This document shows positions 1,141 to 24,664 of a DNA stretch of 24,664 nt, in pieces (position 1 is the first letter of the stretch; every line of letters begins with the position of its first letter). Made by a program: the position numbers and the translations under genes. The stretch is from Brasilonema angustatum HA4187-MV1. Lineage in GTDB: Bacteria > Cyanobacteriota > Cyanobacteriia > Cyanobacteriales > Nostocaceae. A model generated the notes under the pieces. That model worked only from the letters and a program-made list of their open reading frames with translations, did no database searches and was not told the origin of the DNA. The stretch covers positions 1 through 24,664 of the forward strand of contig JAHHGV010000081.1 of the NCBI GenBank assembly GCA_019359695.1, in the 5' to 3' direction.

Positions 1141-1401
1141 TTAAACCCCCTGTTCTCCGCGAAGATTTTTACAAAGATAGTGCTTATTGAAACTAAACAA
1201 TTGTTGTTGCTTGAGTTTTTCTACTGCTTTGTAGGCGCTCGACTTACTTACATTGCAATTGGTCATTAAATCATCAATGGTTACCTGGTGTTGTCCTTCA
1301 AACGTGTTGAGATAACACCAAACACGCCACTCGGTCGCGGTTAGGTTTGCTTGTATTAGTTTCTTAGCTGCTTTGCTAGTCAACAGATAGTCGCTTTCCA
1401 T
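1141..1401 (-). CDS. Small winged-helix protein (86 aa), paralogue of the flanking genes
   Basis: I prefer the ATG at 1399-1401 (MESDYLL...), which has a GAGGAGG Shine-Dalgarno about 10 nt upstream and lies 4 nt after the TAA of the upstream gene. Motif: LTATEWRVWCYL...LMTNCNVSKSSAYKAVEKLKQQQLF. Confidence 0.7.
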   Translation of the reverse strand: MESDYLLTSKAAKKLIQANLTATEWRVWCYLNTFEGQHQVTIDDLMTNCNVSKSSAYKAVEKLKQQQLFSFNKHYLCKNLRGEQGV

Positions 1402-1405
1402 ATCC

Positions 1406-1993
1406 TTAGACCTCCTCACCTGATACGAGTACGTCAAAGGGTTCACAAGCTTGTTTTATCCGGTCTAACTTTGATATCTGGCTGGTGTCACCATAAAGAT
1501 GTATCCGTTTCTTGTGCTGAGGAAATAGAGCACCTATAGGAAGAATCCGGCTGAGAGTCGTTTTCCAGTTTTCCAATCCGCCAACTTGGATAAGCTCAGT
1601 TTCTGTTAGCAGGTCTAACTTACCCGTAACGGTCACGAAGTCTTTTTGTCCTCCCAGTCTTAAATGCAGCCCGTCTTTTATTAACTTCTTGTAATTGCGA
1701 TAAGTTTCTGATTGTCTTGGCATTACCAACAAAATTCTTAGAGGAATTGCTTTTAAATCCTTGAGCCGTGCAATCGCTCTGTAATAAGTTGAGCGGCTTA
1801 GCGCTAAATCAGTTAATATCGCACCTGTCTTTACTAAGTTGGGTAACTGGTCGTCACCTGCAAATTTATTGATAAGAAGCAAGTATAAGAAAATTTTGAC
1901 TTCGGAGCGATTTAATGTGCCATCACTCAATACATCAAGATTTTCTTCTGTGTAAATATTAAATACTTGCTTTTTAGGTTGAGGGTCTGCCAT
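1406..1993 (-). CDS. Winged-helix N-terminal domain protein with an uncharacterised C-terminal domain (possible degenerate PD-(D/E)xK-like pattern GKLDLLTETELIQVG). First gene of the operon.
   Basis: ATG at 1991-1993. Motif: LNRSEVKIFLYLLL...LTDLALSRSTYYRAIARLKDLK. It is followed by two tightly packed paralogues. Confidence 0.7.
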   Translation of the reverse strand: MADPQPKKQVFNIYTEENLDVLSDGTLNRSEVKIFLYLLLINKFAGDDQLPNLVKTGAILTDLALSRSTYYRAIARLKDLKAIPLRILLVMPRQSETYRNYKKLIKDGLHLRLGGQKDFVTVTGKLDLLTETELIQVGGLENWKTTLSRILPIGALFPQHKKRIHLYGDTSQISKLDRIKQACEPFDVLVSGEEV

Positions 1994-2647
1994 AATTTAT
2001 GAAAGATTTGCACAAAACGCAGTGAACTACTCACGTGTACTTGCCTTCAAACCAGCATTAAGTCTTTTTTCTGCACTGGAAAGCACTTTTTATGTTAAAA
2101 AAGATTATTTAATCCAAGTTTGATTAGGCTTGGCTTAATTGATTCTGATTGATTAGGTTGTTTGTACTATTTCAAAACCTGGATTAATCAACAAATCGAG
2201 TATGAAGCGCCATTTTGAGCAAAAGAATATATAAAACAAGTTATTTCTCAAGGCTGGTGGCGCTGTCATCAGCTTTTTTATTAACTTCGTGTGACTTTTG
2301 TACTTACCTTTTGACACATCAGCAATTAATATACTGATTTGATACCCGGAGATTGTAAGATAAGAACAAGTTAAGCTGATAATAAGTGAGGTTTGACATC
2401 TCATGAATTTTTTGGCTTTTTTTAGGTAAATATAAGGATATCCCCAAGGCTTTATTAAGACAAGGGAATATCCTGACGCTCTAGCTAGTTTAGAGCTAGC
2501 TGGAGCATTTTTTATTCGTAGAACACTTACATTGTCTAACGAAACAGAAAAGCGGTCAAGCATTGATACAGCAAAGGCTGCATTCTTTCTGATGGATATC
2601 ATAGGAAAAACCATTTAAGAATTTGTTACCAAAACGTTGACAAAAAG

Positions 2648-2768
2648 AGAAGACAAAAACGCGCTTTCCAAACCAGCCCACGGCGCAACACGCGCTACAT
2701 TAGTTATTTGCTTCGTTTAAGTTCACTTCAAGCGCGGCTGCGCCGCGCCTAGCGCGTTTTTGTCTTCT
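2648..2768. repeat. GC-rich structured element: a perfect 18-bp inverted repeat enclosing 85 nt that contains a GCGCGGC/GCCGCGC hairpin
   Basis: AGAAGACAAAAACGCGCT at 2648-2665 is the exact reverse complement of 2751-2768. The inner hairpin is at 2732-2748. Part of the loop resembles 4975-5003 in inverted orientation. Confidence 0.6.
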
Positions 2769-2858
2769 AATCCAAGAGAATTTTTTTTGTGCTAGGATTT
2801 TCTCAAGTAGCGGGTCAGGTTTCTTGGTCGAACACGTGACCGGCTACCCAATATTTAA

Positions 2859-3572
2859 CTAAAATCCAGTTTCCTCACCCTCGTCATAACCAGCATATTG
2901 GTTGAGCCTTAGTCCATGTCGGTTAGTTTCCTCTAAGAATGAGTCATATCTTTGCTGTCGCACGTGCTGATATTGGTTGAAAGTTTCAGCGCTTAGATAC
3001 TTCCACACCGCAAAGATGTGTTTATCTGGCAATTGTCCTCTAGTTACTGGGTGCTTAAGTAAAATTTTGTAGGCGATCGCATCTTGTTCAAAAGCATTCA
3101 TTAATCCTCGATAGGCGTGACAAGTACAAGTCGCCTCATCTTCTCTCATTTCCACCTCGTAGAAGTCACCCGTGTTACCCAAAGCGATAAATCTATTCCA
3201 GTCATCTCCCAATTGCAGTTTATAGGGGTCTGATTTGGTTTTTGCTTTATCAATTAATACCTGCACATAGTCGCCTTTGCTAACGTGGCGGCTCAAGCCC
3301 TTAATTTTAATTGTTTCACCGCGTTTAACGATTTTGTTGGGGATATGCAGATATACACTGTGTTTCATCACATCTATGGTGATATGTTCACAGCCGATTT
3401 TAATATCTTCGGTACTCCATCCCCACTTTTGAAGTAAAACGCGAGTAGCTTCTACGTTGTAAAGGTGGTGAAGTGCATAATGGTCGCCTTCCTTGTGTCC
3501 TAAAAGCATCTGATGAAACTGTGAATAGGTGCGGTTGGGTTTTGCGTGAGCTTTTGCGATATTACGAGGCAT
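2859..3572 (-). CDS. Hypothetical protein with a SWIM-like zinc-finger pattern
   Basis: 237-aa ORF. CTCHAYRG...LPDKHIFAV resembles CxCx(n)CxH with the third Cys replaced by Asp. Amino-acid composition is normal. Confidence 0.6.
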   Translation of the reverse strand: MPRNIAKAHAKPNRTYSQFHQMLLGHKEGDHYALHHLYNVEATRVLLQKWGWSTEDIKIGCEHITIDVMKHSVYLHIPNKIVKRGETIKIKGLSRHVSKGDYVQVLIDKAKTKSDPYKLQLGDDWNRFIALGNTGDFYEVEMREDEATCTCHAYRGLMNAFEQDAIAYKILLKHPVTRGQLPDKHIFAVWKYLSAETFNQYQHVRQQRYDSFLEETNRHGLRLNQYAGYDEGEETGF

Positions 3573-4793: not shown

Positions 4794-5392
4794 GAAACTT
4801 GAGGAATTTTATGCTATTATTATAGCACGTATACACGTTAAATTAATAGTTTTTGTGAGTGAATGACGCAAACGCAGAGATAACACGCTGATAACACCTT
4901 CTTTTCTTCTTCTGCCGGGGTAGCGTAGCGGCGGCGCGGGAGCGCAGCGAACCGCGCAGAAACAACCGAGGAGGAAACAAATAACCGAAGTAGCGCGTGA
5001 GAGCAAGCGGCAAGGGCGTGGCAGCGCCGCCGCAAGCTTACCCAAACGAGTAAGCGTGAACTGCTTCAACGCGCGGGTAACGAATGCAAGCGCATTCCCT
5101 GGCGCAAAGTGCTTAAAAGCAAATCTTCAAGGGAAGCGATACGCGTCCTTTGAGTGCGCCCCCAAAGACTACGGGCACGCTTCCGCTATCGGGGCTAGCG
5201 TCAGCAAGCGGGCTTATCGCAGATTTCGGAAAGATTTCCTGTGTAAGCTTTTTTTGCGGGTTACCCATCGCACAGAAGTCTGTGGAAAAGTACTGTTTAC
5301 TATCCGGTTTTTCCACAATCAGCCAAATGACATCACTTTCGAGAGCAAACATTCGGAACATGGAAAGTAATGTCAATAGTTGAAAGACCTCG

Positions 5393-7584: not shown

Positions 7585-8040
7585 TTTGGTCTATTGGTAA
7601 TTGAACCATTTTAGTAATTCCTGCTTTTCCTTTGTAGTTTGGTTTCTAGCTGGTCTACTTTGGTTTACTCCATCAAAATTAGCGACAGCAAAGAGTAAAC
7701 CGGTTTGGTTTTAGTAATTCCCATTTTTCCTTTCTAGCTTGACTTCTAGTTGGTCTACTTCGGTTTACTCCATCAAAATCAGCGACAGCAAAGAGTAAAC
7801 CGGTTTGGTTTTAGTAATTCCTGCTTTTCCTTTGTAGTTTGATTTCTAGCTGGTCTACTTTGGTTTACTCCATCAAAATCAGCGACAGCAAAGAGTAAAC
7901 CGGTTTGGTTTTAGTAATTCCCATTTTTCCTTTCTAGCTTGACTTCTAGTTGGTCTACTTCGGTTTACTCCATCAAAATCAGCGACAGCACAGAGTAGAC
8001 TGGTTTGGTTTTAGTAATTTCTGCTTTTCCTTTTTAGCTT
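7585..8040. repeat. Tandem array, exact 100-bp period, about 4.3 units (left part of a split array)
   Basis: TTAGTAATT recurs at 7611, 7711, 7811, 7911 and 8011. Two unit variants alternate, giving a 200-bp higher order. Each unit contains the hairpin GGTTTACTC...GAGTAAACC. Confidence 0.9.
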
Positions 8041-9338
8041 GGGGTCTAGCCGGGATACGTGCAAAATGGGACACGATGCAAAGTTATGTTAAAAAAGTTG
8101 CTTTAAATTTTATGATGTGATGCTAAGGAAAAATCAAACTGATAACTTTAAGACAGTTTTGGCTGAAAAACCTCAAACATATCAGAGGCGTGCGATAGCC
8201 CAAAGGGCTGACGCTCCGCGTATCGTCATCTTCGTCCAAATGCAATCACCGAAAGAACTCAAACAACGATTATTAGGCGTGTTTTGGCTCTTTCATTGGA
8301 TGCTCTTGTCGGTTAAGTTAAAATAAAAGCCCCAATCTCATCTAATGTCTGCGGTATAATATTTAGATCTTCCGTGCAATTTGAAATGCAGCTAAGTTAA
8401 ACAGATGAATTTCGCCCTTAAATTGCTGTTCGATCGCGGTTCTCAATCCCGAAAATAGATTTACTCTCACTTGCGACTCTAAGGCAACGTATTGTGAACC
8501 GCTACTCAAATAATCGAGATACCGATCAACGCTATAGGTTTGTTCGCAAGGGAAGATTTCTGTGGAGGGAGGCTCAAACAATCCTGAATCCCCGACAGGT
8601 TTTCCCAAGCCTGCGGCAATTTCAGCTTGTTTTTCTCGACCTTCGTACGAAGGTGCGATCGCGGGCGCGTAAGCTTGATAAACCTGATTCAAAACTTGAT
8701 GAACTTCATGACTTGGCTCAAGCGTCAGGTTCCAAAGTAAAACGAGAGAACCATCCTCTCGTAACGTCTGTGATGCTTTCACATATTTGATGCCGGATGA
8801 TATCCAGTGCCAAGCATTTGCTGCTAGTACAATTTCATACGCTTGTGGTTGAACTTGCCACTCCTCGAAAGATTCCTGAAAGAGTTGAACCAGAGGAAAT
8901 GCTGCAAGACGACGTGCTGCAACTTGGCAGAAATCTCGATTCGGTTCTACCGCATCGATTGCACATCCCAACTGAGCAAAGTTAATCGTCGCAATTCCTG
9001 ACCCGCATCCGACTTCGAGAATGGTTGAGTCAGAGGAAAGGTGAGCGGCTTCAATCGCTCGCTGTATTAGTGCTTCAGGATAGCGGGGTCTGCCTCGATC
9101 ATAAGCTTCCACAACTGGCGTGTACCAAACCTTCCGTTGCTCTAAGTCTCGATTTGAATACTCATTAAATATTTTGACCGAATCTGCCATGATTCTTACC
9201 CGTGCTTGTCATTTTCAAGCTTAACTCTCTTGTCGCATCTCATGCTAAATAGGGGCAAGTTGGTAAATCAAGAAAGTAGGTTGTGTAACATTTTTTTTAC
9301 AACATGTCCCCTGAATGCGCGTATCCCGGCTTAACCCC
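8041..9338. mobile_element. TIR-bounded, transposase-less cassette of about 1.3 kb carrying a SAM methyltransferase, inserted into the 100-bp array
   Basis: GGGGTCTAGCCGGGATACGTGCAAAATGGGAC (8041-8072) matches the reverse complement of 9306-9338 (GGGGTTAAGCCGGGATACGCGCATTCAGGGGAC). It is flanked by direct AGCTT at 8036-8040 and 9339-9343. The repeat unit is restored if the element plus one AGCTT is removed. Confidence 0.65.
8363..9190 (-). CDS. Class I SAM-dependent methyltransferase (Methyltransf_11/25-like)
   Basis: Motif I is ILEVGCGSGIATINFAQLG, followed by an acidic post-I residue (AIDAVEPN). 275 aa. Confidence 0.8.
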   Translation of the reverse strand: MADSVKIFNEYSNRDLEQRKVWYTPVVEAYDRGRPRYPEALIQRAIEAAHLSSDSTILEVGCGSGIATINFAQLGCAIDAVEPNRDFCQVAARRLAAFPLVQLFQESFEEWQVQPQAYEIVLAANAWHWISSGIKYVKASQTLREDGSLVLLWNLTLEPSHEVHQVLNQVYQAYAPAIAPSYEGREKQAEIAAGLGKPVGDSGLFEPPSTEIFPCEQTYSVDRYLDYLSSGSQYVALESQVRVNLFSGLRTAIEQQFKGEIHLFNLAAFQIARKI

Positions 9339-9738
9339 AGCTTGACTTCTAGTTGGTCTACTTCGGTTTACTCCATCAAGAACAGCGACAGCACAGAGTA
9401 GACTGGTTCGCTTTGAGTAATTTCTGCTTTTGCTTTGTAGTTTGGTTTCTAGTTGGTCTACTTCGGTTTACTCCATCAAGAACAACGACAGCACAGAGTA
9501 GACTGGTTCACTTTGAGTAATTTCTGTTTTTCCTTTGTAGTTTGGTTTCTAGCTGGTCTACTTCGGTTTACTCAATTAAGATTAGCGACAGTACAGAGTA
9601 GACTGGTTCGCTTTGAGTAATTCCTGCTTTTCCTTTGTAGTTTGGTTTCTAGCTGGTCTACTTTGGTTTACTCAATTAAGATTAGCGACAGCACAGAGTA
9701 GACTGGTTCGCTTTGAGTAATTCCTGCTTTTCCTTTTT
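9339..9738. repeat. Tandem array, exact 100-bp period, about 4 units (right part of the split array, same orientation)
   Basis: CTTTGAGTAA recurs at 9411, 9511, 9611 and 9711. The units are homologous to 7585-8040 but use the hairpin CTGGTCTACT...AGTAGACTGG. Confidence 0.9.
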
Positions 9739-9978: not shown

Positions 9979-12900
9979 CTACTTCGTTGCAGCACAACTA
10001 CTATTAGGCGCTGGCTGTTCACGCTGTGGACCAGTCTTAGTCGGATCATAAGCGACCAGCACCACCTCACCTTTTTCGTTATATATCCAACCTTGAGCAG
10101 GTACTATCTGTTTAACAGGTGGCTTTTTAGATGGTTGCTTTTGTGTTGGAGTTGTTAAACTTACTTTACTGGGGACAGGCTCAATTAAATCAACACGCAC
10201 ATTGTCACTACTGAGGATTTTATTTGGATCTGTTGGCAATCCCCCGCGTCCGGTGACAGTGAAAGTGCTACCAAAACCTTTGATACAGGGATTTTGAGCA
10301 ACCTGCTGTGCCGGATCAACCACAGTTTCTGTTAATTCAAATAACCCTTGGGTGGGGTCAATATCAACTACATTAATTAGCACATTACCACTCGACTGGT
10401 CATTTACCCCTGTGGCGGTGATGTCGCTTGTGTTTGGGGAAGCAGGATTACGAGACACAAAGCCAAAAATACCTCGGCTATTGATTTTGACATTACCGCC
10501 ACGGGAATTAGCAGAGTTAGCAGTGATATCGCTATTGTCAAAGCCAACCAGGACACCAGTATTAATATTGATGTTGCCGCCAATAACGTTTTCTCCTGTG
10601 GCGTTGGTTGTGATGTTGCTGTTGTTGCGCAAGATTAAATCTTTTGAAGTAATGTTAATTGTCGCTTGCTCCCTACTGGAGTCAACTTTAGCACTACGTG
10701 TATCGCCACTGAGTAAAGCATTGTTGTTTAAACGGATAGAGCGAGCATTTAATGTCATCTTGCCTGCGGTTCCTGTTCCGAAACTCTGCACGCTTACTCT
10801 TGCCCCATCTTGCACTAGCAAGGTATTGGTTCTAACTGTAAGATCACCCGCATCTCCTGTTGAGTTTCGATTTGCTTGAGCAAACAAGCCACTGGAAAGC
10901 TGACCATCAGCCCTTCTACCAATCAATTGCACATCTTGGGCATCAACAGTCAAACTACCCCCCTTGCCCGCACCAAAAGTGGTAGTACTTACCTGTGCTG
11001 TATCTCGCACTAGCAAAGTATTGGTTTTGATTGTAAGATCACCCGCATCCCCTGTTGAGTTTGGATTTGCATTAGCAAACAAGCCACTGCCATCACCATT
11101 AGCGCTTATACCAATCAATTGCACATCTTGGGCATCAACAGTCAAACTACCTCCCTTGCCCGCAGCATTAGTACTAGCATCTACCACTGCCCCATCTCGC
11201 ACGAGCAAGGAATTAGTTTTGATTGTCAAATCACCTGCATTCCCTGTTGAGTTTGCTTGAGCACTCAAGGCACTGGGAAGCCGACCATCAGCGCTTGTAC
11301 CAATCAGTTGCACATCTTGGGCATCAACAGTCAAACTACCCCCCTTGCCCGCACCGTAAGTGTTGTCACTTACCAGTGCCCCATCTCGCACGAGCAAGGT
11401 ATTGGTCTTGATTGTCAGATTACCCGCATTCCCTGTTGAGTTTGGCTGTGCAGAAGCAAACAAGCCACTGGAAACCCGACCATTAGCGCTTCTACCAATC
11501 AGTTGCACATCTTGGGCATCAACAGTCAAACTACCCCCCTTGCCCGCACCGGAAGTAGTAGTACTTACCTGTGCCCCATCTCGCACGAGCAAAGTATTGG
11601 TTTTGATAGTAATATCACCCGCATTCCCTATTGAGTTTCGCTGTGCATCAGCACTCAAGCTACTAGGAAAGCGACCATTAGCGCCTGTACCAATCAGTTG
11701 CACATCTTGGGCATCAACCCTTATATTTGCCCCCTTACCCGCACCGAAAGTGCTAGTATTTACCACTGCTCCATCTCGCACTAGCAAGGAATTGGTTTTG
11801 ATTATCAAATCACCTGCATCCCCTGTTGAGTTTTGCTGTGCAGAAGCACCCAAGCTACTGCCAAACCGACTATCAACGCTTCTACCAATCAATTGCACAT
11901 CTTGGGTATCAACAGTCAAACTACCCCCCTTGCCCGCACCGTAAGTACTAGTACTTACCTGTGCCCCACCCTCAAGCCGCAAGCTGCTAGCACTGATATT
12001 GACATCACCTCCCTGTCCATTTGCTCTTGATCCCACCTGATTAGCAATTCGACTGTTGTTAAGGTTTATTGCTCCTGTGGCATTAACCGAAATGTTTCCT
12101 GCTTGAGTATCAACTGTCCCCAAACCATCTCCTATTCCAGCCTGAAGCAAACTTCCTCCCGTCATCTCTAAATTACGGGCATTAACTGCAATACTACCGC
12201 CCCCACCTGAGCTAACATCAACGAGCGCAGCATTCGTCAGCGATACATCCGCTCTTTGCACTCCCACAGGAAAACTCAAACTTCCATCACCATTGAGTTC
12301 TATCGTCCCAGCAGCAGACAATCCTCCTAACTCAACTCGTCCTCCTGGTGCAAACAGTATTCCACCATCTAAGTTGACGTTACCACCCACCAGTGCTAAT
12401 GAATTTCCTTCTGGAACAGTAAGACCATTAACAACATTGCCATTATTATCAACAGCCCTCGACTGATTGCTGATATTTTTGAAATTCTCCCGATAGCTCA
12501 ACCCAACTGGAGCAGTTATCGTTAACAATGGTGGTGCTTGGGGATTCGTTGCACTAAACTCAAAATTATTCTTAAACAGCAAACTATTTGCCGTACTTCC
12601 CAAAAAAGAACCACCTACATCCAACCGCGCATTTCGTCCGAAGATAATTCCATTCGGGTTGATAAAAAACAAGTTCGCTTTGCCCAACACACCCAAAACA
12701 CCTTGAATGTTCGAGATATTCCCCCCAGTCACTCTGGTGAGTATGTTTGCAATCCCCGCTGGATTGGAAAAATAAGCTCCTCTACCAGCATTGATATTAA
12801 ATTCCTGAAAACTATGAAACAGGTTCGCCCCACGCTTTGCGCCCCCATCAATCCTGTCGCTAGGGATGCCCTTAATCACATCCTGTGTGACACGGGAGTT

Positions 12901-13020
12901 CTCCGCGCCCAGCGTGTTATCAGGAGTAATTTGTGCTTTGGCTACGGTAAAGTAGGTCAAGCTGAATACAGCTGCAAGGGGTAAGGTGAGGAGAAAGAGT
13001 GGGTGACGCACTTGTTCCAT
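9979..13020 (-). CDS. Filamentous-haemagglutinin-type exoprotein with an N-terminal two-partner-secretion (TPS) domain and a beta-helical repeat body
   Basis: Signal-peptide-like start MEQVRHPLFLLTLPLAAVFSLTYFTVAKA (ATG at 13018-13020). TPS hallmarks are NLFHSFQEFNI and NILTRVTGGNISNIQG...LFFINPNGIIFG. There are about 8 repeats of roughly 60 aa (GAGKGGSLTVDAQDVQLIG...NSTGNAGDLTIKTNTLLVRDGA). Confidence 0.85.
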   Translation of the reverse strand: MEQVRHPLFLLTLPLAAVFSLTYFTVAKAQITPDNTLGAENSRVTQDVIKGIPSDRIDGGAKRGANLFHSFQEFNINAGRGAYFSNPAGIANILTRVTGGNISNIQGVLGVLGKANLFFINPNGIIFGRNARLDVGGSFLGSTANSLLFKNNFEFSATNPQAPPLLTITAPVGLSYRENFKNISNQSRAVDNNGNVVNGLTVPEGNSLALVGGNVNLDGGILFAPGGRVELGGLSAAGTIELNGDGSLSFPVGVQRADVSLTNAALVDVSSGGGGSIAVNARNLEMTGGSLLQAGIGDGLGTVDTQAGNISVNATGAINLNNSRIANQVGSRANGQGGDVNISASSLRLEGGAQVSTSTYGAGKGGSLTVDTQDVQLIGRSVDSRFGSSLGASAQQNSTGDAGDLIIKTNSLLVRDGAVVNTSTFGAGKGANIRVDAQDVQLIGTGANGRFPSSLSADAQRNSIGNAGDITIKTNTLLVRDGAQVSTTTSGAGKGGSLTVDAQDVQLIGRSANGRVSSGLFASAQPNSTGNAGNLTIKTNTLLVRDGALVSDNTYGAGKGGSLTVDAQDVQLIGTSADGRLPSALSAQANSTGNAGDLTIKTNSLLVRDGAVVDASTNAAGKGGSLTVDAQDVQLIGISANGDGSGLFANANPNSTGDAGDLTIKTNTLLVRDTAQVSTTTFGAGKGGSLTVDAQDVQLIGRRADGQLSSGLFAQANRNSTGDAGDLTVRTNTLLVQDGARVSVQSFGTGTAGKMTLNARSIRLNNNALLSGDTRSAKVDSSREQATINITSKDLILRNNSNITTNATGENVIGGNININTGVLVGFDNSDITANSANSRGGNVKINSRGIFGFVSRNPASPNTSDITATGVNDQSSGNVLINVVDIDPTQGLFELTETVVDPAQQVAQNPCIKGFGSTFTVTGRGGLPTDPNKILSSDNVRVDLIEPVPSKVSLTTPTQKQPSKKPPVKQIVPAQGWIYNEKGEVVLVAYDPTKTGPQREQPAPNSSCAATK

Positions 13021-13232
13021 GTTTAAAAACAGTATTGTAAGAGGAGTCGTCAAATTACCGTCTTTAAATACTCATACCAGGTTTTTAGACAAAAGTGCGC
13101 TTTTTATAACTTTTTTTTGAAAAAAGGCACGGATAATTTCCTTAACTAAACTGTATTGGTTTCCCTTTCCCCCTTAACCTTTAACCTTTTCCCTGTCCTC
13201 CAGGCATTGACCTTTTCCCCCGACTTCTACTG

Positions 13233-15767: not shown

Positions 15768-15871
15768 TTATCGCTTCGCTCCTGGGTATAGAGGTGTGGG
15801 GGTGTAGGGGAAAGACTTGAAAATGTACACCCCTAAGAGTGCAATGGGGTTTTAGACCCCAACCGATTGCT

Positions 15872-15945
15872 CCCCCCCCCCTACACCCTTATACCCTTAT
15901 ACCCTTATACCCTTACACCCCTACACCCTTACACCCTTACACCCC
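15872..15945. repeat. C10 homopolymer followed by about 8 tandem octamers (CCCTTATA/CCCTTACA)
   Basis: The C-run is at 15872-15881 and octamers extend to 15945. They are complementary to GGGTATAGAGGTGTGGGGGTGTAGGGG at 15784-15810. Confidence 0.85.
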
Positions 15946-15965
15946 TTCTTTTTTACTTTGGTCAT

Positions 15966-17942
15966 ATGAACTCTTCTGTAGACTTGACTCAACATATGAC
16001 CAGCCTGTTTAAGGCTGGCGTGTTGGATGTCAATCTTTTTTCTTACCTCAAGTTACGCAAGCTGAACCCAACCGGACCAGTAACGCTTGACAGCAATGTT
16101 TACTCTGGTACTCAAATAAGTGCTGATTTATTTAACGTTGCGGCAGCACTATGGCAAAAGGGACTGGTCAAAATCAATCCGTTTCCTAACGTAACGGTGA
16201 GATTTTCTAATGAACCAGATGCATTGTCAGAAGCAGAGATACTGCGATCGCAAGATACTATCAGTTCATCAACTCATATCTTCAATGCACTGCAAGGCGA
16301 ATCTTCCAGACTGAACGCTGAGACAGTTGTCATCGATGACGCTTTTCGTACCAGATGGAAAGTTACAACTGATGACCTGCTTAGATATTTACCTGGTGTT
16401 TTGAAAAAAGCGTATGAAGCTGACAGATTAGATACCTTTTATTCTGCTAATCCATCTTTGGTATGGACAGCTACAGCTACACACAACCCCAGTGAGACTA
16501 CGGAAGCTGATTTAAAATCTTTGTTTGCCTTGGGTTTATCCAATGAAGCTTACTTCTTCTGGATTCTCAACGCTTTCTTGGAATTGCGATCGCCCATCCA
16601 AGCCGACCTTGCAGAAATTGGTGACGAGTGGGGACTTGACGCTGATAATGCACTTGGTGCAGCTGCTGACTTGGTTACTGCCAAAGTGATGACAACTTAC
16701 CAAGCGGATTCAATCAACGTAGTTTGGTTAAAAACCTTGTCAACACTTGGCACCGCAGAAATTGATTACGCTGGTGCATTGATGAGCGCAGAAGGCAAAA
16801 TGATGTATCAACTCTGGAAGTACAACAGTCCGGTTGAACCATCTTTGTTTTCAACGCTCAACGGTGTTACTCTAGCTAACTTCTATAAAAACCTTAGAAG
16901 AATCAAAGCAAAAGGCATTATTGATATTAGCACGTCAAATCTCACGGCTACTTGGTCAGCAGTTTACAACCCACCTCCACCATCAAATGCACTGAGGGCA
17001 CCAACAGGTGTTACAGTCACAGCAATCGACTCATCGAAAATTCGGGTGACTTGGACACAGCCAAGCTCAGGAGTTGCTGCAACAAACTGGCGTGTTATGT
17101 ATCGTGTGAAGAATAGCGGTGTTGCTTACTCAGAAAAGAATCCAGCAACTTCACCAGCTGTCGTTACTGGCTTGAGTGCTAGCACAGAGTATGAAGTATA
17201 TGTTTACTCTGAAGGCGGCGGTGACTTGAAACCATCTAACACGGCTTACGGTAGCACGACAGCTGCGAGTAGCGGTGGTAACGCTAGTGGTAGTGGTAGT
17301 GGTAGCGCTAGTGGTGGTAACAACACCCCAACAATCCCAACCAATCACACCATTTGGTTAAAGTTTGACCCAGGTGAACTGCAAACAAACTCTGGAAGCT
17401 ATGGACCAGTTGCAACAACAGGGGACTCAATTACCAGTGTCACCAATAGTGGGCACGGCAACACAGTCAAACTTGGTGAGAATAGTGGTTTTGTTGTGTA
17501 CAATCAACCACAACCAGCTGCATACACCAGAAGCGCTTGGATAAAAATCACAGAATATTTTGATTGGTCTGCTTTGTTTGGAGCAGAGACAGGAACAGAA
17601 GCCAACCGTCACAACTTGATGGTGAATGAAGATCATTCGTTTGCACTGTGGAGTAACTACGATTGGATAGCTACATATGATTGGGTAATTCCGTTGAACC
17701 AGTGGGTACACGTGGCAAGCACCTTTGAGAATGGTGCATTCAAGCTTTATGTAAACGGTGCGCTGGTCATGACTGAGAATAATCTCACTTATGCACCAGA
17801 CTCAACAAACAGCACAGTATTTATTGGATTGATGGGATTTGGAAATGCTTCTTGGAACAACTATATAGATGATGTCGTGTGGTATTCAAGAGCGTTAACC
17901 CAGGCTGAAGTTACGCAGTTGTATCAAGTTACGACTGTGTGA
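15966..17942 (+). CDS. Multidomain protein: four repeats of an approximately 85-aa (winged-helix-like?) domain, an FN3 domain, a Gly/Ser linker and a LamG/concanavalin-A-like lectin domain
   Basis: I prefer the ATG at 15966 (MNSSVDL...) because the upstream part of the track ORF is the octamer repeat. FN3: PTGVTVTAIDSSKIRVTWTQP...STEYEVYVYS. LamG_3-like: AWIKI...WVHVASTFENGAFKLYVNGALV...IDDVVWYSRALTQAEVTQLY. Confidence 0.8.
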   Translation: MNSSVDLTQHMTSLFKAGVLDVNLFSYLKLRKLNPTGPVTLDSNVYSGTQISADLFNVAAALWQKGLVKINPFPNVTVRFSNEPDALSEAEILRSQDTISSSTHIFNALQGESSRLNAETVVIDDAFRTRWKVTTDDLLRYLPGVLKKAYEADRLDTFYSANPSLVWTATATHNPSETTEADLKSLFALGLSNEAYFFWILNAFLELRSPIQADLAEIGDEWGLDADNALGAAADLVTAKVMTTYQADSINVVWLKTLSTLGTAEIDYAGALMSAEGKMMYQLWKYNSPVEPSLFSTLNGVTLANFYKNLRRIKAKGIIDISTSNLTATWSAVYNPPPPSNALRAPTGVTVTAIDSSKIRVTWTQPSSGVAATNWRVMYRVKNSGVAYSEKNPATSPAVVTGLSASTEYEVYVYSEGGGDLKPSNTAYGSTTAASSGGNASGSGSGSASGGNNTPTIPTNHTIWLKFDPGELQTNSGSYGPVATTGDSITSVTNSGHGNTVKLGENSGFVVYNQPQPAAYTRSAWIKITEYFDWSALFGAETGTEANRHNLMVNEDHSFALWSNYDWIATYDWVIPLNQWVHVASTFENGAFKLYVNGALVMTENNLTYAPDSTNSTVFIGLMGFGNASWNNYIDDVVWYSRALTQAEVTQLYQVTTV

Positions 17943-18056: not shown

Positions 18057-18173
18057 CTACTTCAATGAGAGTACTTAACTTGAAGTAGGACTTAAGCCGT
18101 GTGAGCGCGAAAGTTTCATGCACGGTTCGCGCGGGGAGGGGAGAGCAGCGACGCTCGAACCTTACCCGACTAC
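18057..18173 (+). mobile_element. Group II intron 3'-terminal remnant (domain IV stub, domain V, domain VI) with no reverse-transcriptase ORF
   Basis: AAGCCGTGTGAGCGCGAAAGTTTCATGCACGGTTC (18094-18128) fits the domain V consensus: AGC triad, GAAA loop and an ACGGTTC 3' arm. It is followed by a hairpin with a bulged A (CGGGGAGG.../CCTTACCCG) ending in ...CTAC. A 9-bp stem at 18057-18088 lies upstream. Confidence 0.5.
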
Positions 18174-18434: not shown

Positions 18435-18568
18435 AGGGTATATTCCACGTTAGTCGGATTTGGTGTAGCGCGACCCAAGACTTGTATGATAAATATGCCG
18501 AGAAATCCAAAAAGTTGTACAGTAAGTTTGTATATATCACTATTAATACTAAATTTAAGTGCAAGCTG

Positions 18569-19027
18569 ATGGTGGAACCTCTAACGGCAGCAGTGATTGT
18601 ATCCTTATTTTTCTCTGAAGCAGTCAAAGAAGGAGGAAAAACGTTAGGTAAAGGTGTGACCGATACATTTACTCAGTTGGTAAATACTATTCGGGAAAAG
18701 TTTCAAGCACATAATATAGATGGAATATTGACACAAGCACAGAAACAACCAACAGAAACGAATAAGACTATTTTTCAAAATGTACTGCAAACTCAAATCG
18801 ATACAGATGAGGCCTTTGCTAACAAACTTAAAGAATTAGTCCAGCAACTACAAGCACAGGATGAAAGGATACGTCAGGTAGTTCTAAGTGGGATTGAATT
18901 AGGTGGCGATTTGAAAACGAAAGACATAAGCCAGAAAGCTATACGAAGTGGTTCAGTTGAGCAGGAAATGCTCAAGCAGGTGAAAGCAACAAACATTGAG
19001 TTGGGTAACTTAACTCAGGAAAGCTAG
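18569..19027 (+). CDS. Bell-like predicted membrane-targeting effector (152 aa) with a C-terminal double copy of the motif shared with the downstream NLR
   Basis: I prefer the ATG at 18569 (MVEPLTAAVIVSLFFSEAV...), giving a hydrophobic N-terminal helix, a helical body, and then VVLSGIELGGDLKTKDISQ and NIELGNLTQ at the C-terminus. The stop is 4 nt before the NLR start. Confidence 0.7.
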   Translation: MVEPLTAAVIVSLFFSEAVKEGGKTLGKGVTDTFTQLVNTIREKFQAHNIDGILTQAQKQPTETNKTIFQNVLQTQIDTDEAFANKLKELVQQLQAQDERIRQVVLSGIELGGDLKTKDISQKAIRSGSVEQEMLKQVKATNIELGNLTQES

Positions 19028-19031
19028 AGAC

Positions 19032-21281
19032 ATGAGCGAGCACCTAAGTCCAGAAGAAATTTTGCAGAGCATTCTCCAGAATGTTCAGATAGGTGGCAAT
19101 CTGACTACAGGGGATATTACCCAAATCCTAAATTTAATAGTTGTTATCAAACAGATTGATTCTTTCAAGCCGACTGAGATTCCTCAAAATGTTCCCCGCA
19201 GTGGCACGATTAAGTTTGTGGGTCGTGCCGAGGCACTAGAGAGGCTGCACCAAATGTTGCAACAGAACAATCAGATAGTGCTTGCTGCTATTGAGGGCAT
19301 GGGTGGAGTTGGGAAAACGGAGTTAGCCACCCAGTATGCACTAATTCACTTGCTAGTTAGCACCTATACGGGTGGTATTTGCTGGTTACGAGCTAGAGAT
19401 GAAGATATTGGTTTGCAAATTGTGCAGTTTGCCATGACAGACTTAGGCTTGCAACCTCCAGATAATTTAGATTTACAACAGCAAACACGTTGGTGCTGGT
19501 CACGTTGGTATCAGGGAAATGTGCTAGTCGTGCTGGATGATGTCAACGATTACCAGAAGGTGGAGCCATACCTACCACCGCAATCACCCCGTTTTAAGGT
19601 GCTAATTACGACACGCTTGCAGTTAGACGACCTGACTGAGTCATCTAGATTTATCTTAGATGTGTTAAGTGAGTCGGCAGCAATTGAACTTCTTGAGGGG
19701 TGGATTGAGGCTTCAAAAATTAAACAGGAATTGGCAGATGCCAAAGAACTTTGTCAATGGCTGGGCTATTTGCCTCTAGCGCTAAATCTAGTAGGACGGT
19801 ATGTTAAGAAGCGGAAACTGTCCTTAGCAGAAATGCTGCGGAGGTTAAAGGAAAAAAAGTTAAGTCATGAATCTTTGGTACGTGATAGCAATGATCGTAC
19901 TTTGGCGTTAAATATTAAGCGTGGAGTTGAAGCTGCCTTTGAGTTGAGTTGGGAAGAATTAAGTAAAGATGCTCAAAAGCTAGGGTGTCTGCTCAGTTTA
20001 TTTGCTTTGGCTCCGTTTCCTTGGTCGCTGGTAGAAAGTGCTGCCCCTGAGCAAGACGCAGAAGAACTGGAAGATGCCAGAGTTGAATTAGAAAACTTGC
20101 ACTTGCTTATGGGTGAAGATAGTTATCAGTTACATCCACTGATTCAAGAGTTTCTCAGAGACAAGCAAAATAACTTAGCTGTTAAAGAAGAACAAAAATA
20201 TAATTACTGCGTTGCAATGGTTGCTGTTGCGGAGAAAATTCCTCAAAGCCTTATATTACAAGAAATTACTACATCCACTATTGTTATCCCCCACCTTGCT
20301 GAAGTTGCCACTGTTTACAATAATTGGTTAAGTGATGAAGATTTAATTATGCCTTTTAGGGCCTTAAGTCGATTTTTTCAAGGTCAAGGAGCTTATGCAC
20401 AAGCTTTACCTTGGTTAGAGCAATGTTTATCAGTTGCAAAAAATCGCTTGGGAGAAGAGCATCCCCATGTTGCCACCAGTTATAACAACTTGGGAGTACT
20501 CTACTGTGAACAAGGACTGTACAACGAAGCTGAACTACTGTACAAAAAAGCATTGGAACTCAGGCTACACCTGCTGGGAGAAGAGCATCCCCATGTCACT
20601 ACCAGTTACAACAACTTAGCAGCAGTCTACCAATCGCTTGGACGGTACAACGAAGCTGAACCATTGTACATTAAAGCATTGGAACTCAGGCTACGCCGGG
20701 GAGAAGAGCATCCCGATGTTGCCACTACTTTCAACAATTTGGCTAATCTCTACCGTGGCCAAAAACGGTACAGTGAAGCTGAACCACTCTACCGAAAAGC
20801 ATTGGAACTCAGGCTACGCCGGGGAGAAGAGCATCCCAATGTTGCCGAGACTTACAACAACCTGGCAGGACTCTACTCAGACCAAGATCGGTACAGTGAA
20901 GCTGAACCACTGTTCATAAAAGCATTGGAACTTTATCAACACTTACTGGGAGAAGAGCATCCCAATGTTGCCACCACTTACAACAACCTGGCAGCAGTCT
21001 ACTCAGACCAAAAACGGTACAGTGAAGCTGAACCACTCTACCGAAAAGCTTTAGAACTAAGGCAACGCTTACTGGGAGAAAAGCATCCTCAGATCGCCAC
21101 CACTTACAACAACTTGGCTAATCTCTACCGTGACCAAGAACGGTACAGTGAAGCTCAACTACTATACCAAAAAGCTTTGAAAATTGCTGAACTTAGCTTA
21201 GGAGTTGATCATGACATTACAAAACTTATCCGTGAAAATATGACAGAAAATATGACATTTTTGGCAGATAATGACGCTTAA
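19032..21281 (+). CDS. NB-ARC (STAND NTPase) protein with C-terminal TPR repeats (NLR architecture) and a short N-terminal signalling motif
   Basis: Walker A is GMGGVGKT (19296-19319), Walker B is VLVVLDDV, plus ITTR and GYLPLAL (GLPL motif). There are about 7 TPR_12-type 42-aa repeats (EEHP.VA..YNNLA.LY..Q.RY.EAEPLY.KALEL). The N-terminus is LQNVQIGGNLTTGDITQ. Confidence 0.9.
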   Translation: MSEHLSPEEILQSILQNVQIGGNLTTGDITQILNLIVVIKQIDSFKPTEIPQNVPRSGTIKFVGRAEALERLHQMLQQNNQIVLAAIEGMGGVGKTELATQYALIHLLVSTYTGGICWLRARDEDIGLQIVQFAMTDLGLQPPDNLDLQQQTRWCWSRWYQGNVLVVLDDVNDYQKVEPYLPPQSPRFKVLITTRLQLDDLTESSRFILDVLSESAAIELLEGWIEASKIKQELADAKELCQWLGYLPLALNLVGRYVKKRKLSLAEMLRRLKEKKLSHESLVRDSNDRTLALNIKRGVEAAFELSWEELSKDAQKLGCLLSLFALAPFPWSLVESAAPEQDAEELEDARVELENLHLLMGEDSYQLHPLIQEFLRDKQNNLAVKEEQKYNYCVAMVAVAEKIPQSLILQEITTSTIVIPHLAEVATVYNNWLSDEDLIMPFRALSRFFQGQGAYAQALPWLEQCLSVAKNRLGEEHPHVATSYNNLGVLYCEQGLYNEAELLYKKALELRLHLLGEEHPHVTTSYNNLAAVYQSLGRYNEAEPLYIKALELRLRRGEEHPDVATTFNNLANLYRGQKRYSEAEPLYRKALELRLRRGEEHPNVAETYNNLAGLYSDQDRYSEAEPLFIKALELYQHLLGEEHPNVATTYNNLAAVYSDQKRYSEAEPLYRKALELRQRLLGEKHPQIATTYNNLANLYRDQERYSEAQLLYQKALKIAELSLGVDHDITKLIRENMTENMTFLADNDA

Positions 21282-21844
21282 CGCCAGTCAAGTTAAAAAT
21301 TATAAATAAGCTGGGTGGTGCAGGAAGTCCGCCAAAGAGCTAAAACGTTGACCTGATGGCTCAAAGTATTAACGCTGTTGGGCGTTAAATATAACGGCTT
21401 TTATTTTGGATAACTGAAAAGTTTTAGAGGTCTACTTTAGGGTAGACCATATAAAAACACTGCACAATCGCAAAAGCAATTGATAAAGCAAGCATATGAC
21501 GTCAGTTTGCTTAGTTTATTTGTACTAATAACTCTAGGCGATGTGGTATTTTTTACTATCAAAGTTTACCATTGTGTTGAAGCAATACTATTTTGCTCGT
21601 CTACAACCCAATTCAATTAACGCTCCTTTGAACCACAGCCGTGACTCCTTAACGGTTGTTTTTTTATTGGTAAAATAGTAGCGCTGGTACTCTCCATAAG
21701 GAGTTTACTTTTAAGTCCAATAACAAAAATGCGATCGCGTGTGAATGGTCGCGATCGCTTTACTAATTCCTTTTGTGTTGGACTGATTCCACTCAGATAT
21801 GCTCTAAAGCTTTATATACCATCAAAATAGACATGAAATTCAAC

Positions 21845-22148
21845 GACAAGCCTAAAAAAGTACTCTTCAACATATTCTTAGAGGAAACTGAGTTTTTAAC
21901 AGATTTTCTTAGAGGAAAGTCTAAATTCTGATTGACAAGCTCATAAAAAACACTCTTTAACATATTCTTAGAGGAAACCAAGCTTGCAAGAGATTTTCTT
22001 AGAGGAAAGTCTTGCTGTAAGAAACTGCGTTCATGAAAGATTTTCTTAGAGGAAAGTCTGATTTATCACTGACGAGCCTAAAAAAGCACTCTTCAACATA
22101 TTCTTAGAGGAAACTAAGTTCGCGGGAGATTTTCTTAGAGGAAAGTCT
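21845..22148 (+). repeat. Iteron cluster: 7 direct copies of TTCTTAGAGGAAA(C/G) organised as three units of about 78 bp plus a half unit. Candidate origin or centromere.
   Basis: Copies start at 21875, 21906, 21965, 21996, 22043, 22101 and 22132. They lie inside a roughly 0.9-kb non-coding stretch (21282-22221). Confidence 0.75.
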
Positions 22149-23266: not shown

Positions 23267-24664
23267 TTACAACGGGTTAGCCCTTTTCCTACCCTTAGAA
23301 TTCTTGATGAACTCAATAGTTTTATCTAATGGAGTATCAAGCTTTTGCATAGCTCTTATCATTGATAGAACTCGGTGAGGTATACACCCAAGACTTCTGT
23401 TTCTCCATTCACCGTTTACTTTTTCTTCCCAGTTAAAACCCCATCGCCAATGAGTAACATCATTTTCGTCACGTTCACCATCAATTCGCGGATAAGTGAC
23501 AATCAACCCATTCTTCAGGGTTTTGTTTTCTAGATACTTGTATAGACAACCTCTAGCACGTCGTTCATCTACTGATGCTTTCGAGGTATAAAACTCTGTG
23601 GAGTCCGATAGCGGCAAGTCTTGGGTCAAAAGTGTTACCGAGGGCTTCGCGTCGTCGTCGGATGATGCGATCGCCTTTAGGAAGTCCCAAGCTGTAAGAG
23701 AGTTGGTTGGGTCGGTCCAGTCGGTTGGAATTCCTAGCGATTCCTCTAAGAATTGAGGGTTTATTACTTGTCCCCGCTCCAAGTGTCCTGTTTGTCTCAA
23801 GTGCTGCTCTAATTTGTTCAATCCAGGGGGACGGGATTTCACTGAACTGTATGCTGTTGGCGACGGCAACCAATAGCAATCTTTGTCTGACAAATCGACT
23901 TCCAACACTGCCACCGGAAACCAAAGCACCCTCAAGTCGATATCCGAGCGTGTCGAAGATTTCCGCCAATCGATTAATGTAGAGTTCTTTGGCTCCTGGT
24001 CGGAGGGGACAATTGAGCAAGCCTGGGACGTTTTCAATGACACAATACTTTGGTCTAACTCGCTCGACGATTTTGACAACAAAGGGGAAGCAGTCTCTCT
24101 CGTCGTCTGCACCGAGTCGCATTCCTCTGATACTAAATGGGGGGCATGGAGTGGAACAGGAGATGATGTCTGCTTCTGGCAGTGACTCAAGCTTGGCGAT
24201 GTCTCCGAAGTTTTCGACGCCTGGGTATCGTTTTGCAAGGATTCCACAGCAGTAGTCGTCGATTTCGGCAACTCCAACGAGTTGCAATCCAAGGGCAGCA
24301 CCTGCGAAACAGTATCCTGCACCAATTCCTGAGCACAAATCAAATTGCTTGAGTCTTCTTTGTCCTTCCATTCCTTCCATGCCTGTTCGTATTCGTTTAA
24401 GTTTGGATAATCGTCTGGGTCTGGTGCTTCTTCGCTAGAATCCAAGAAGATGAGCAACTGTCCATCCTGTTCCTTCTGGAATACGCCTGTACTATTGAAG
24501 TCTTTAGGATTCCACCTGTCATCATCGCTGATATCACTCGTTTCCTCTAAGAAAGCGCAAGCGGTATTATTTTCCTGAGAATGGTCATCATCGCTGATAT
24601 CACTCGTTTCCTCTAAGAAAACAGAAACGGTATGATTTTCCTGAGAACGGTCATCATCGCTGAT
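23267..24664 (-). CDS. Second long ORF in another frame, open to the window end. It continues the acidic repeat ORF from 1-403, overlaps the whole methyltransferase gene, and ends in an approximately 100-aa C-terminal domain.
   Basis: The frame has no stop from 24664 down to 23267 and is in phase with the 1-403 ORF across the 85-bp terminal identity. It contains NPQFLEESLGIPTDWTD (23711-23761), a C5-methyltransferase motif IX-like sequence, and a normal-looking C-terminus (GCLYKYLENKTLKNGLIVTYPRIDGERDENDVTHWRWGFNWEE...). The middle part is Ser/Thr-rich and looks like off-frame sequence. Confidence 0.45.
   Translation of the reverse strand: MSDDDRSQENHTVSVFLEETSDISDDDHSQENNTACAFLEETSDISDDDRWNPKDFNSTGVFQKEQDGQLLIFLDSSEEAPDPDDYPNLNEYEQAWKEWKDKEDSSNLICAQELVQDTVSQVLPLDCNSLELPKSTTTAVESLQNDTQASKTSETSPSLSHCQKQTSSPVPLHAPHLVSEECDSVQTTRETASPLLSKSSSELDQSIVSLKTSQACSIVPSDQEPKNSTLIDWRKSSTRSDIDLRVLWFPVAVLEVDLSDKDCYWLPSPTAYSSVKSRPPGLNKLEQHLRQTGHLERGQVINPQFLEESLGIPTDWTDPTNSLTAWDFLKAIASSDDDAKPSVTLLTQDLPLSDSTEFYTSKASVDERRARGCLYKYLENKTLKNGLIVTYPRIDGERDENDVTHWRWGFNWEEKVNGEWRNRSLGCIPHRVLSMIRAMQKLDTPLDKTIEFIKNSKGRKRANPL
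23565..24380 (-). CDS. DNA (cytosine-5)-methyltransferase, unusually short (271 aa) with a minimal target-recognition region
   Basis: Motif I is FDLCSGIGAG (24315-24344), motif IV PCPPFS (24132-24149), motif VI ENVPGL, motif VIII RQRLLLVAV, and a motif X-like ALGNTFDPRLAAIG (23622-23645). Confidence 0.8.
   Translation of the reverse strand: MEGMEGQRRLKQFDLCSGIGAGYCFAGAALGLQLVGVAEIDDYCCGILAKRYPGVENFGDIAKLESLPEADIISCSTPCPPFSIRGMRLGADDERDCFPFVVKIVERVRPKYCVIENVPGLLNCPLRPGAKELYINRLAEIFDTLGYRLEGALVSGGSVGSRFVRQRLLLVAVANSIQFSEIPSPWIEQIRAALETNRTLGAGTSNKPSILRGIARNSNRLDRPNQLSYSLGLPKGDRIIRRRREALGNTFDPRLAAIGLHRVLYLESISR
24517..24664. repeat. Tandem coding repeat of about 66 bp, continuation of the array at 1-215
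   Basis: GTCATCATCGCTGATATCACTCGTTTCCTCTAAGAAA recurs. 24580-24664 is identical to 1-85. Confidence 0.85.

Follow-up and report, generated by a model that had tools for sequence, protein, structure and literature searches.

Bell-domain proteins and the NLRs encoded next to them were screened by Dyrka et al. 2020 (10.1101/2020.01.06.895854), who defined ten families of BASS motifs. Here we describe a locus of this kind at positions 18,569 to 21,281 of a window of 24,664 nucleotides (nt), by which we mean the whole stretch of DNA that was analysed. The window is nearly the entire 24,666-bp contig, which belongs to a metagenome-assembled genome of Brasilonema angustatum HA4187-MV1 (Nostocales, Scytonemataceae). 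The locus consists of a gene for a small effector followed by a gene for an NLR. We consider it probable, at roughly 70%, that it is a BASS4-class Bell/NLR amyloid-signalling pair closely related to the pairs of Dyrka et al. 2020.

Table S2 of that study lists, under BASS4 (member motifs cya_02 and nlr_13), members of the effector family as Bell-side proteins, and their NLR partners as well. The listed pair BAZ20404.1/BAZ20405.1 of Scytonema NIES-4073 corresponds to the locus we call L014, with agreement in motif strings, positions and the 379-bp gap; its effector (P0069, labelled Kalymmatonema gypsitolerans NIES-4073, formerly Scytonema) is 74% identical to the effector of the window. The pair OYE01065.1/OYE01066.1 of Nostoc ‘Peltigera membranacea cyanobiont’ 232 corresponds to our L004, whose effector (P0021) is 81% identical, and BBD58559.1/BBD58560.1 of Nostoc HK-01 corresponds to P0108. 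A later paper of the same group notes that Bell-side proteins often carry BASS4 more than once, which recalls HET-s, and that its grammar comes closest to the one of HET-s (PMC8086366); the logic of two copies plus one is therefore already in print for BASS4. Since close relatives were catalogued as BASS4 in 2020, the finding is correct but not new, and the locus brings no new principle. It shares with the published BASS4 pairs the effector family, the motif, an NB-ARC/TPR partner and collinear, closely spaced genes. Unlike the entries of Table S2, the Brasilonema locus is absent from the 2020 table and may sit on a small circular replicon.

The arrangement resembles that of HET-S/NWD2 (Podospora anserina, HRAM), in which two pseudo-repeats on the effector are matched by one at the N-terminus of the adjacent NLR. 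The proposed activation would also be alike, with templated refolding that frees an N-terminal hydrophobic helix of a helical, membrane-targeting effector. The linker between the repeats is 6 amino acids (aa) here and 6-15 aa in the fungal system. In contrast to HET-S/NWD2, the effector described here has no HeLo or HeLo-like match in Pfam (E up to 1), its partner is NB-ARC/TPR rather than NACHT/WD40, and no sequence homology to HET-S/NWD2 is shown.

A second point of comparison is Bab/Agp of E. coli ECOR25 (BASS11), for which abortive infection has been shown by experiment, with a Bell-related domain activated through amyloid conversion (10.1101/2024.11.07.622273). There, too, the genes are adjacent, and the N-terminus of the partner, which has TPR repeats, bears the motif found on the effector. 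The Babybell domain, however, is ~80 aa long, as against ~100 aa here, the motif belongs to BASS11, and the partner has the order TPR-GreA/B-C-PIN, whereas the partner in the window lacks a GreA/B or PIN domain.

The effector-associated domains (EADs) are globular adaptor domains. Those of STAND conflict systems were reportedly described by Kaur, Burroughs, Iyer and Aravind. The initial annotation of the window had held that the pair fits their logic equally well, and as an analogy this stands, because a common module is found on the N-terminus of the sensor and on a separately encoded effector. Membership among the EADs was rejected: the shared element here is 22-24 aa and predicted to be disordered, not globular, so that the likeness is one of logic only.

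The features of the locus are as follows, all on the forward strand.

18486-18568, forward: conserved 5' leader and putative promoter region that moves with the cassette (AAAATCCGAAAA ... TTGTACAGTAAGnTTGTATA ...), from blastn and an alignment of 14 loci
18569-19027, forward: effector gene, 152 aa, Bell-type helical domain and a tail with two BASS4 repeats, from the open reading frame (ORF), the conserved start and homologues
18569-18862, forward: Bell-type helical domain, residues 1-98 including the MVEPLT start, from the AlphaFold2 model
18581-18613, forward: N-terminal hydrophobic helix, residues 5-15, by Kyte-Doolittle
18863-18934, forward: BASS4 repeat R1, effector residues 99-122, ERIRQVVLSGIELGGDLKTKDISQ, 29.0 bits to the profile, and local alignment
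18935-18952, forward: linker KAIRSG between R1 and R2, residues 123-128, 6 aa, from sequence
18953-19018, forward: BASS4 repeat R2, effector residues 129-150, SVEQEMLKQVKATNIELGNLTQ, 27.1 bits to the profile
19028-19031, forward: 4-nt spacer from the effector stop to the NLR ATG at 19032, from sequence
19032-21281, forward: NLR gene, 749 aa, N-terminal BASS4 motif, NB-ARC NTPase and TPR sensor repeats, from Pfam
19053-19124, forward: BASS4 motif R0, NLR residues 8-31, EEILQSILQNVQIGGNLTTGDITQ, 35.4 bits to the profile
19230-19892, forward: NB-ARC nucleotide-binding domain, residues 67-287, from Pfam
19296-19319, forward: Walker A, GMGGVGKT, residues 89-96 (K95), from sequence
19521-19544, forward: Walker B, VLVVLDDV, residues 164-171, from sequence
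19764-19784, forward: GxP-type GYLPLAL, from sequence
20349-21242, forward: TPR sensor region, residues ~440-737, from Pfam and repeats

The shared motif and its assignment to BASS4

The initial annotation had proposed a 152-aa protein with a hydrophobic N-terminal helix, a second gene starting 4 nt later, and a motif shared by the two products; all of these lie at, or inside, the positions that it gave. It had quoted three peptides as copies of the motif, IELGGDLKTKDISQ (effector residues 109-122, nt 18893-18934), NIELGNLTQ (effector residues 142-150, nt 18992-19018) and VQIGGNLTTGDITQ (NLR residues 18-31, nt 19083-19124), and each lies inside the range that it had been given. The sharing of the motif thus stands, but the 14-aa extent does not: the shared element is ~22-24 aa long, because the best Smith-Waterman alignment of the whole effector with the whole NLR spans effector residues 99-122 and NLR residues 8-31 (11/24 identical, score 59). 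This score was reached by 2/2,000 shuffles of the whole proteins and by 0/20,000 shuffles when the C-terminal 58 aa of the effector were set against the N-terminal 45 aa of the NLR. The similarity of R2 to R1 was equalled in 23/20,000 shuffles. That of R2 to R0 is marginal in this pair alone (805/20,000), yet R2 is clearly detected by the family profile despite its weak pairwise match to R0.

The motif can be written as phi-x-Q-x-phi-phi-x-x-phi-x-phi-x-G-[ND]-phi-x-phi-[GK]-[DN]-phi-x-Q. R0 and R1 have a common residue class at 14/22 columns (phi1, Q3, phi5, phi6, phi9, phi11, G13, [ND]14, phi15, phi17, [DN]19, phi20, [TS]21 and Q22). R0 differs at 2/22 residues from a published NLR-side row, ILQSILQNVQVGGNLTTGNITQ (OYD94772.1), and R2 matches published Bell-side rows of the form ‘...GSVEQEMLKGIKAT-NIDLGNLNQE’.

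We built a BASS4 profile from 14 published aligned rows of Table S2 and searched it against the 170 six-frame ORFs of the window. It matched effector residues 98-122 (29.0 bits) and 128-150 (27.1 bits) and NLR residues 8-31 (35.4 bits) only, with the next ORF at E 1.5. The motif is cross-detected from the Bell side to the NLR and from the NLR side to the Bell protein. Specifically, a profile of Bell-side rows alone detects R0 of the NLR at E 1.2e-4 (next ORF 0.96), and one of NLR-side rows alone detects R1 of the effector at E 1.2e-3 (next ORF 1.7). All three sites are still detected by a profile of four Bell-side rows judged, by their motif sequence, to lie outside the effector family. Together with the presence of relatives in Table S2, the recognition of all three copies and of nothing else by published rows bears out the Bell/BASS interpretation that had been advanced for the locus, and with it the HET-S/NWD2-like logic of two pseudo-repeats on the effector and one on the NLR.

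The locus also has the layout of a BASS4 pair, with the motif at the C-terminus of the effector and at the N-terminus of the NLR, both genes on the same strand and a gap of 4 nt, where up to 5 kb is allowed. Hosts of such pairs are multicellular or filamentous prokaryotes, as is the case for Brasilonema, a filamentous genus of the Nostocales.

The effector, the NLR and their conservation as a cassette

The effector is 100% identical to the Brasilonema angustatum HA4187-MV1 protein KME46_33815. Its gene runs from an ATG at 18569 to a stop codon that ends at 19027. An alternative ORF that opens with TTG at 18482 would be longer, but we take the ATG as the start because homologues of 152 aa with an opening M[VT]EPLT number more than 100. 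Starts of the type M-E-P-[ILV]-T occur in 55/115 representatives of the effector family. The N-terminus matches the conserved ‘MEPIS’ region, which is tied to cell-death activity (Ibarlosa et al. 2024, 10.1101/2024.11.07.622273).

The Bell signature comprises ~100 aa, a helical fold, a hydrophobic N-terminal helix and an acidic residue at position 2 or 3 (Dyrka et al. 2020). Judged by these features and not scored with a Bell hidden Markov model, the effector shows the signature in its helical model over residues 7-112, in E3, in the hydrophobic residues 5-15 and in the MVEPLT start. Residues 5-15 (LTAAVIVSLFF) are the most hydrophobic 11-residue stretch of the protein (Kyte-Doolittle 2.56), and the N-terminal helix is hydrophobic in the manner of a buried one. 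The AlphaFold2 model, based on a 29-sequence alignment, has a mean pLDDT of 70 and a pTM of 0.63, and predicts helices at residues 7-20, 28-47, 51-59, 63-79, 81-97 and 99-112. Its pLDDT is 83-92 over residues 31-100; the tail (residues 112-152), and R2 within it, is modelled as disordered with a pLDDT of ~40, and no beta structure is predicted anywhere.

Homologues of the effector number at least 184 in a database clustered at 90% identity, and an exhaustive profile search (E up to 1e-3) collected relatives in 254 clusters at 50% identity. Many of these clusters share residues 1-97 only and carry other G/N/Q-rich tails, such as ...SSIGNxxSGxNxTIGDIN or KYxFxFxxEVKGSAFG. We also observed proteins in which the Bell-type N-terminal domain is fused directly to a long C-terminal region without a BASS tail (P0127, 682 aa and repeat-rich; P0128, 458 aa; P0221; P0228). 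As residues 1-97 are combined with other tails and fusions, the domain can be separated from the tail as a module of its own, in line with published descriptions of Bell and BASS. The effector belongs to no family of Pfam, NCBIfam or PADLOC; matches to a spectrin model (Spectrin_6, 0.04) and a gas-vesicle model (GvpT, 0.017) lie far below the cut-offs and were rejected.

The partner had been described as an NB-ARC/TPR STAND NTPase, and this is confirmed by Pfam matches to NB-ARC (PF00931, E 2.9e-16, residues 67-287) and, in seven stretches, to TPR_10 (E 4e-85), with both Walker motifs in place. Six of its TPR units, each of 42 aa, share 50-79% pairwise identity, and the DNA that encodes them, at 20449-21194, is built of 126-nt repeats. 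Variable TPR number and internally similar repeats have been linked to rapidly diversifying recognition and repeat reshuffling (Dyrka et al. 2020), and the similarity of the repeats seen here fits that idea.

The effector and NLR genes are probably co-transcribed as one operon. The same 4-nt spacing recurs in at least 12 related loci, and gaps of up to 10 bp were reported in 57% of collinear pairs (Dyrka et al. 2020, 10.1101/2020.01.06.895854). The leader upstream (~85 nt) is a conserved block in the alignment of 14 loci, and we infer that it acts as a promoter. A conserved RNA fold in the leader received no support (-4.6 kcal/mol, covariation term 0.01), and a scan for promoters and terminators returned counts no higher than expected from shuffles. 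Across 34 related loci the upstream edge of blastn homology falls at 18477-18604, and in nearly all of them at ~18480-18540. Homology of the window to the related loci is limited to ~18477-21320; the pair and its leader thus form a discrete, self-contained cassette found in varying contexts.

A scan with one genome per species yielded 36 related loci from Nostocales and a few other cyanobacteria. In 23 of these the effector is full-length and a P-loop ORF can be read downstream of it; they were compared together with the window as 24 pairs. The downstream P-loop ORF carries the motif in 24/24 pairs, and the two-gene cassette is conserved across Nostocales. From the end of the motif to the end of Walker A there are 60-65 aa in the 23 NB-ARC-type partners and 102 aa in the remaining locus, L009. 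When searched over the 2,517 six-frame ORFs of the 36 loci, the BASS4 profile found effector C-termini and the N-termini of the next ORF only. Nine partner NLRs were sampled with Pfam, and the eight with hits are NB-ARC proteins with 3 to 14 TPR_10 stretches. The R1/R0 match of the window is the best of the 24 pairs (score 54, rank 1 on both sides).

Conservation of the motif in related gene pairs had been suggested as a check on the initial reading, which was upheld on this point at the level of the family. The companion check, co-variation of the motif between neighbouring genes, gave little for individual pairs: own partners score 40.5 and non-partners 39.2 (permutation p ~0.01, without phylogenetic correction), which is too weak to claim co-evolution, so that what is conserved is the family-level motif.

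The sequence of L009 suggests a change of partner in which the motif was retained. The Bell relative is followed in this locus by a 59-aa remnant with a BASS4 motif (710-886) and then by a 687-aa P-loop protein (1145-3208, GNPGAGKT) with no Pfam hit and a BASS4-like N-terminal IQQDAFKNIQATSVSIGSINQ. The partner here is not of the NB-ARC type and yet bears the motif; it is therefore the motif, not the type of NTPase, that stays with the effector.

In partner NLRs of the Scytonema/Tolypothrix relatives (L014 at 4837-4960, and the equivalents in L015, L016 and L034) the BASS4 motif is preceded by ~35 additional N-terminal aa, MTSNPEPNIQQQAENSTLSGGMQAIQGDNNIQLQGNS. This Q/N/G-rich segment gives no match to the BASS4 profile, could not be located in Table S2 and is a candidate for a second signalling motif. 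Paralogous effectors with nearly identical BASS4 repeats occur in the genome of the window itself (P0039, KME46_32575), on one scaffold (L015 and L016) and on one chromosome (L025 and L027), and such pairs within one genome raise the question of cross-talk.

Proposed mechanism and alternative explanations

By analogy with HET-S/NWD2 and Bab/Agp, we infer that the pair would act through amyloid templating and membrane-targeted cell death. We speculate that the TPR repeats would sense a ligand, most likely a phage or another non-self cue, and that nucleotide-dependent oligomerization of the NB-ARC domain would then gather several R0 peptides. The clustered R0 peptides could adopt a cross-beta (beta-arch or solenoid-like) fold and template R1 and R2 of the effector, with two rungs per molecule as in HET-S. 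Refolding of R1 would loosen the helical bundle because R1 overlaps the last predicted helix. The freed N-terminal hydrophobic helix might insert into the membrane and kill the cell, which in a filament would amount to altruistic abortive infection. In HET-S the HeLo domain and the prion-forming region overlap, and the modelled overlap of R1 with the last helix of the Bell domain would parallel this. Precedents come from BASS1 and BASS3, which form prions and fibrils, with the NLR-side motif converting the Bell-side motif, according to Dyrka et al. 2020.

Several observations weigh against the assignment to a Bell/NLR amyloid-signalling pair. The effector model retrieved nothing significant from the PDB with Foldseek (best E 2.2), and a sequence-profile search of PDB sequences gave nothing relevant (best E 0.14). 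Neither search linked the effector to Bab (9H9V), HeLo or MLKL, and because no PDB match is significant, similarity to the crystal structure of the Bab ‘Babybell’ domain (9H9V) is not established; Bell folds are known to vary extensively in topology (Ibarlosa et al. 2024, 10.1101/2024.11.07.622273). In the model, the first half of R1 (residues 99-112) appears as the last helix of the resting domain, predicted at moderate confidence (pLDDT ~69). PADLOC 2.0, with its Avs/AVAST and bNACHT models, matched the NLR by a generic TPR model only and the effector by none, and the neighbouring genes form no obvious defence island. The weak co-variation of individual pairs belongs here as well. What Bell/NLR pairs do biologically has yet to be worked out, according to the 2024 preprint (10.1101/2024.11.07.622273), and we found no experiments on BASS4 or on this effector family in the literature searched, in agreement with the earlier remark that such pairs are largely uncharacterized experimentally in cyanobacteria.

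The simplest alternative, that the similarity between effector and NLR is a chance or low-complexity match, can be regarded as refuted. The motif is short, and R2 and R0 taken by themselves are only marginally similar, but no shuffle reached the R1/R0 score, the profile matches are exclusive to three sites, and the motif recurs in every pair compared, at a near-fixed position in the 23 NB-ARC-type partners. A genuine motif could still serve as a docking peptide for a 1:1 or small-oligomer contact, through beta-strand augmentation or a short helical zipper, so that the NLR recruits or releases the effector without prion-like conversion or self-propagating amyloid. The helix modelled for residues 99-112, in a protein with no predicted beta structure, would suit such a contact, as would the several lysines of R1, which are atypical of the K-depleted BASS composition (Dyrka et al. 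2020), and BASS4 fibril data were not found in the literature searched. We nevertheless think docking improbable. Hydrophobic residues alternate along the motif, which also shows the G/N/Q pattern known from BASS motifs and beta-solenoids; two copies on the effector and one on the NLR follow the logic of HET-S/NWD2, which has been noted for BASS4; and every BASS motif tested so far (1, 3 and 11) made amyloid.

A further alternative keeps amyloid-controlled death and changes its purpose, to developmental or stress-related programmed cell death in filaments, to kin recognition or allorecognition, or to stabilization or exclusion of the replicon that carries the pair. Such roles would be compatible with the distribution of Bell/NLR pairs, which is confined to prokaryotes that are filamentous or multicellular, and with the possibility that the window is itself a small circular replicon. 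They would also be compatible with surroundings in which a truncated C5 methylase was the only defence-island neighbour seen, and with the paralogue (P0039) encoded in the same genome. On the other side, the one bacterial amyloid-signalling pair whose function has been tested protects against phages by abortive infection, and variable TPR number and internally similar repeats are traits linked to rapidly diversifying recognition (Dyrka et al. 2020). Close relatives lie on records labelled as chromosomes (8.7-9.4 Mb), so the cassette is not tied to a plasmid. We treat these other roles as a tentative possibility.

If the assignment to a BASS4-class Bell/NLR pair is right, the locus bears on a wider question. 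Bell/NLR pairs have been proposed as the prokaryotic equivalent of HET-S/NWD2 in fungi and of necroptosis signalling through RHIMs, and they support the idea that cell death controlled by NLRs and triggered by amyloid is ancient. The locus is a clean and compact example, with its 4-nt gap, conserved leader, best R1/R0 match of 24 and possibly a small replicon, and it could be used to test function for the first time in BASS4 and in a Bell/NLR pair of a cyanobacterium.

Replicon context and neighbouring features

The initial annotation had regarded the cassette as plasmid-borne. The window begins (1-85) and ends (24580-24664) with exactly the same 85 nt, which points to a circular molecule of 24,579 bp. 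Since this overlap falls within 66-nt tandem repeats (4-133 and 24518-24664), it may also be an assembly artefact. The features that may bear on replication are the following.

400-1140, reverse: DnaD-like helicase-loader homologue beside the repeat junction (phrog_186, E 4.5e-7)
1141-1446, reverse: HTH_36 protein beside the repeat junction
21875-22144, forward: array of seven copies of TTCTTAGAGGAAA just 3' of the NLR gene, intergenic
24541-24553, 28-40, 94-106 and 178-190, reverse: junction array of TTCTTAGAGGAAA
2927 (reverse), 1735 (forward) and 23740 (reverse): single copies of TTCTTAGAGGAAA

The DnaD-like protein has homologues on seven Nostocales plasmids (37-44% identity, tblastn), and together with the HTH_36 gene it may form a replication module. 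The 13-mer TTCTTAGAGGAAA is present in 13 exact copies and in 2 with one mismatch, against 0.06 expected, and its arrays look iteron- or operator-like in sequence. At the DNA level, a search of PLSDB with the window returned trivial matches only and no close match to any plasmid there. Close relatives of the cassette are found on records labelled as complete or nearly complete chromosomes, and the relatives of the effector on Nostoc plasmids are distant only (30-32% identity). A plasmid location is therefore plausible for this copy, given the terminal overlap, the DnaD-like gene and the iteron-like 13-mers, but it is not a property of the effector family.

These observations could be combined with the predicted helix of R1 into a broader scenario. 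The cassette, with its own leader, would travel from one Nostocales genome to another as a mobile and self-contained module for abortive infection or cell death. It would be carried here on a circular, plasmid-like replicon of ~24.6 kb with iteron-like arrays, and R1 would be part of the last helix of the resting Bell domain, which amyloid conversion would unzip. We regard this scenario as conceivable, though we lean against it as a whole. If the domain were indeed unzipped in this manner, it would be a HET-S-type trigger of a sort not yet shown for any bacterial Bell protein, and under the combined scenario the unusually good R1/R0 match would make the locus a favourable model for a first BASS4 experiment.

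Upstream of the cassette, at 18092-18170 on the forward strand, the 77-position Rfam model of group II introns (RF00029) is matched end to end at 41.3 bits, which is borderline against the gathering threshold of 40. The match, possibly what is left of an intron, falls in the intergenic stretch that separates the Bell cassette from an FN3/LamG gene. Elsewhere in the window, a C-5 cytosine DNA methylase ORF (23565-24380, reverse) covers profile positions 2-181 of 324 only and is nested in a 396-aa ORF (23267-24457, reverse) on the same strand in another frame; a frameshift in the gene or an error in sequencing may be the cause. The gene at 9979-13053 on the reverse strand, with 195-nt internal repeats at 10801-11968, encodes 1024 aa with a two-partner secretion (TPS) domain. 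Its product resembles filamentous haemagglutinin, and the gene has 77% DNA identity to a Calothrix plasmid gene over ~1 kb. Related 100-nt tandem repeats (7609-8041 and 9347-9736; ~4 copies each, 89-94% matches) stand on either side of a class I SAM-methyltransferase gene (8363-9190, reverse). The ORF of an FN3 / concanavalin-like protein (15867-17942), which opens with TTG, carries at its 5' end 8.4 iterations of an 8-nt repeat, CCCTTACA (15878-15944), and the gene probably has its true start further downstream.

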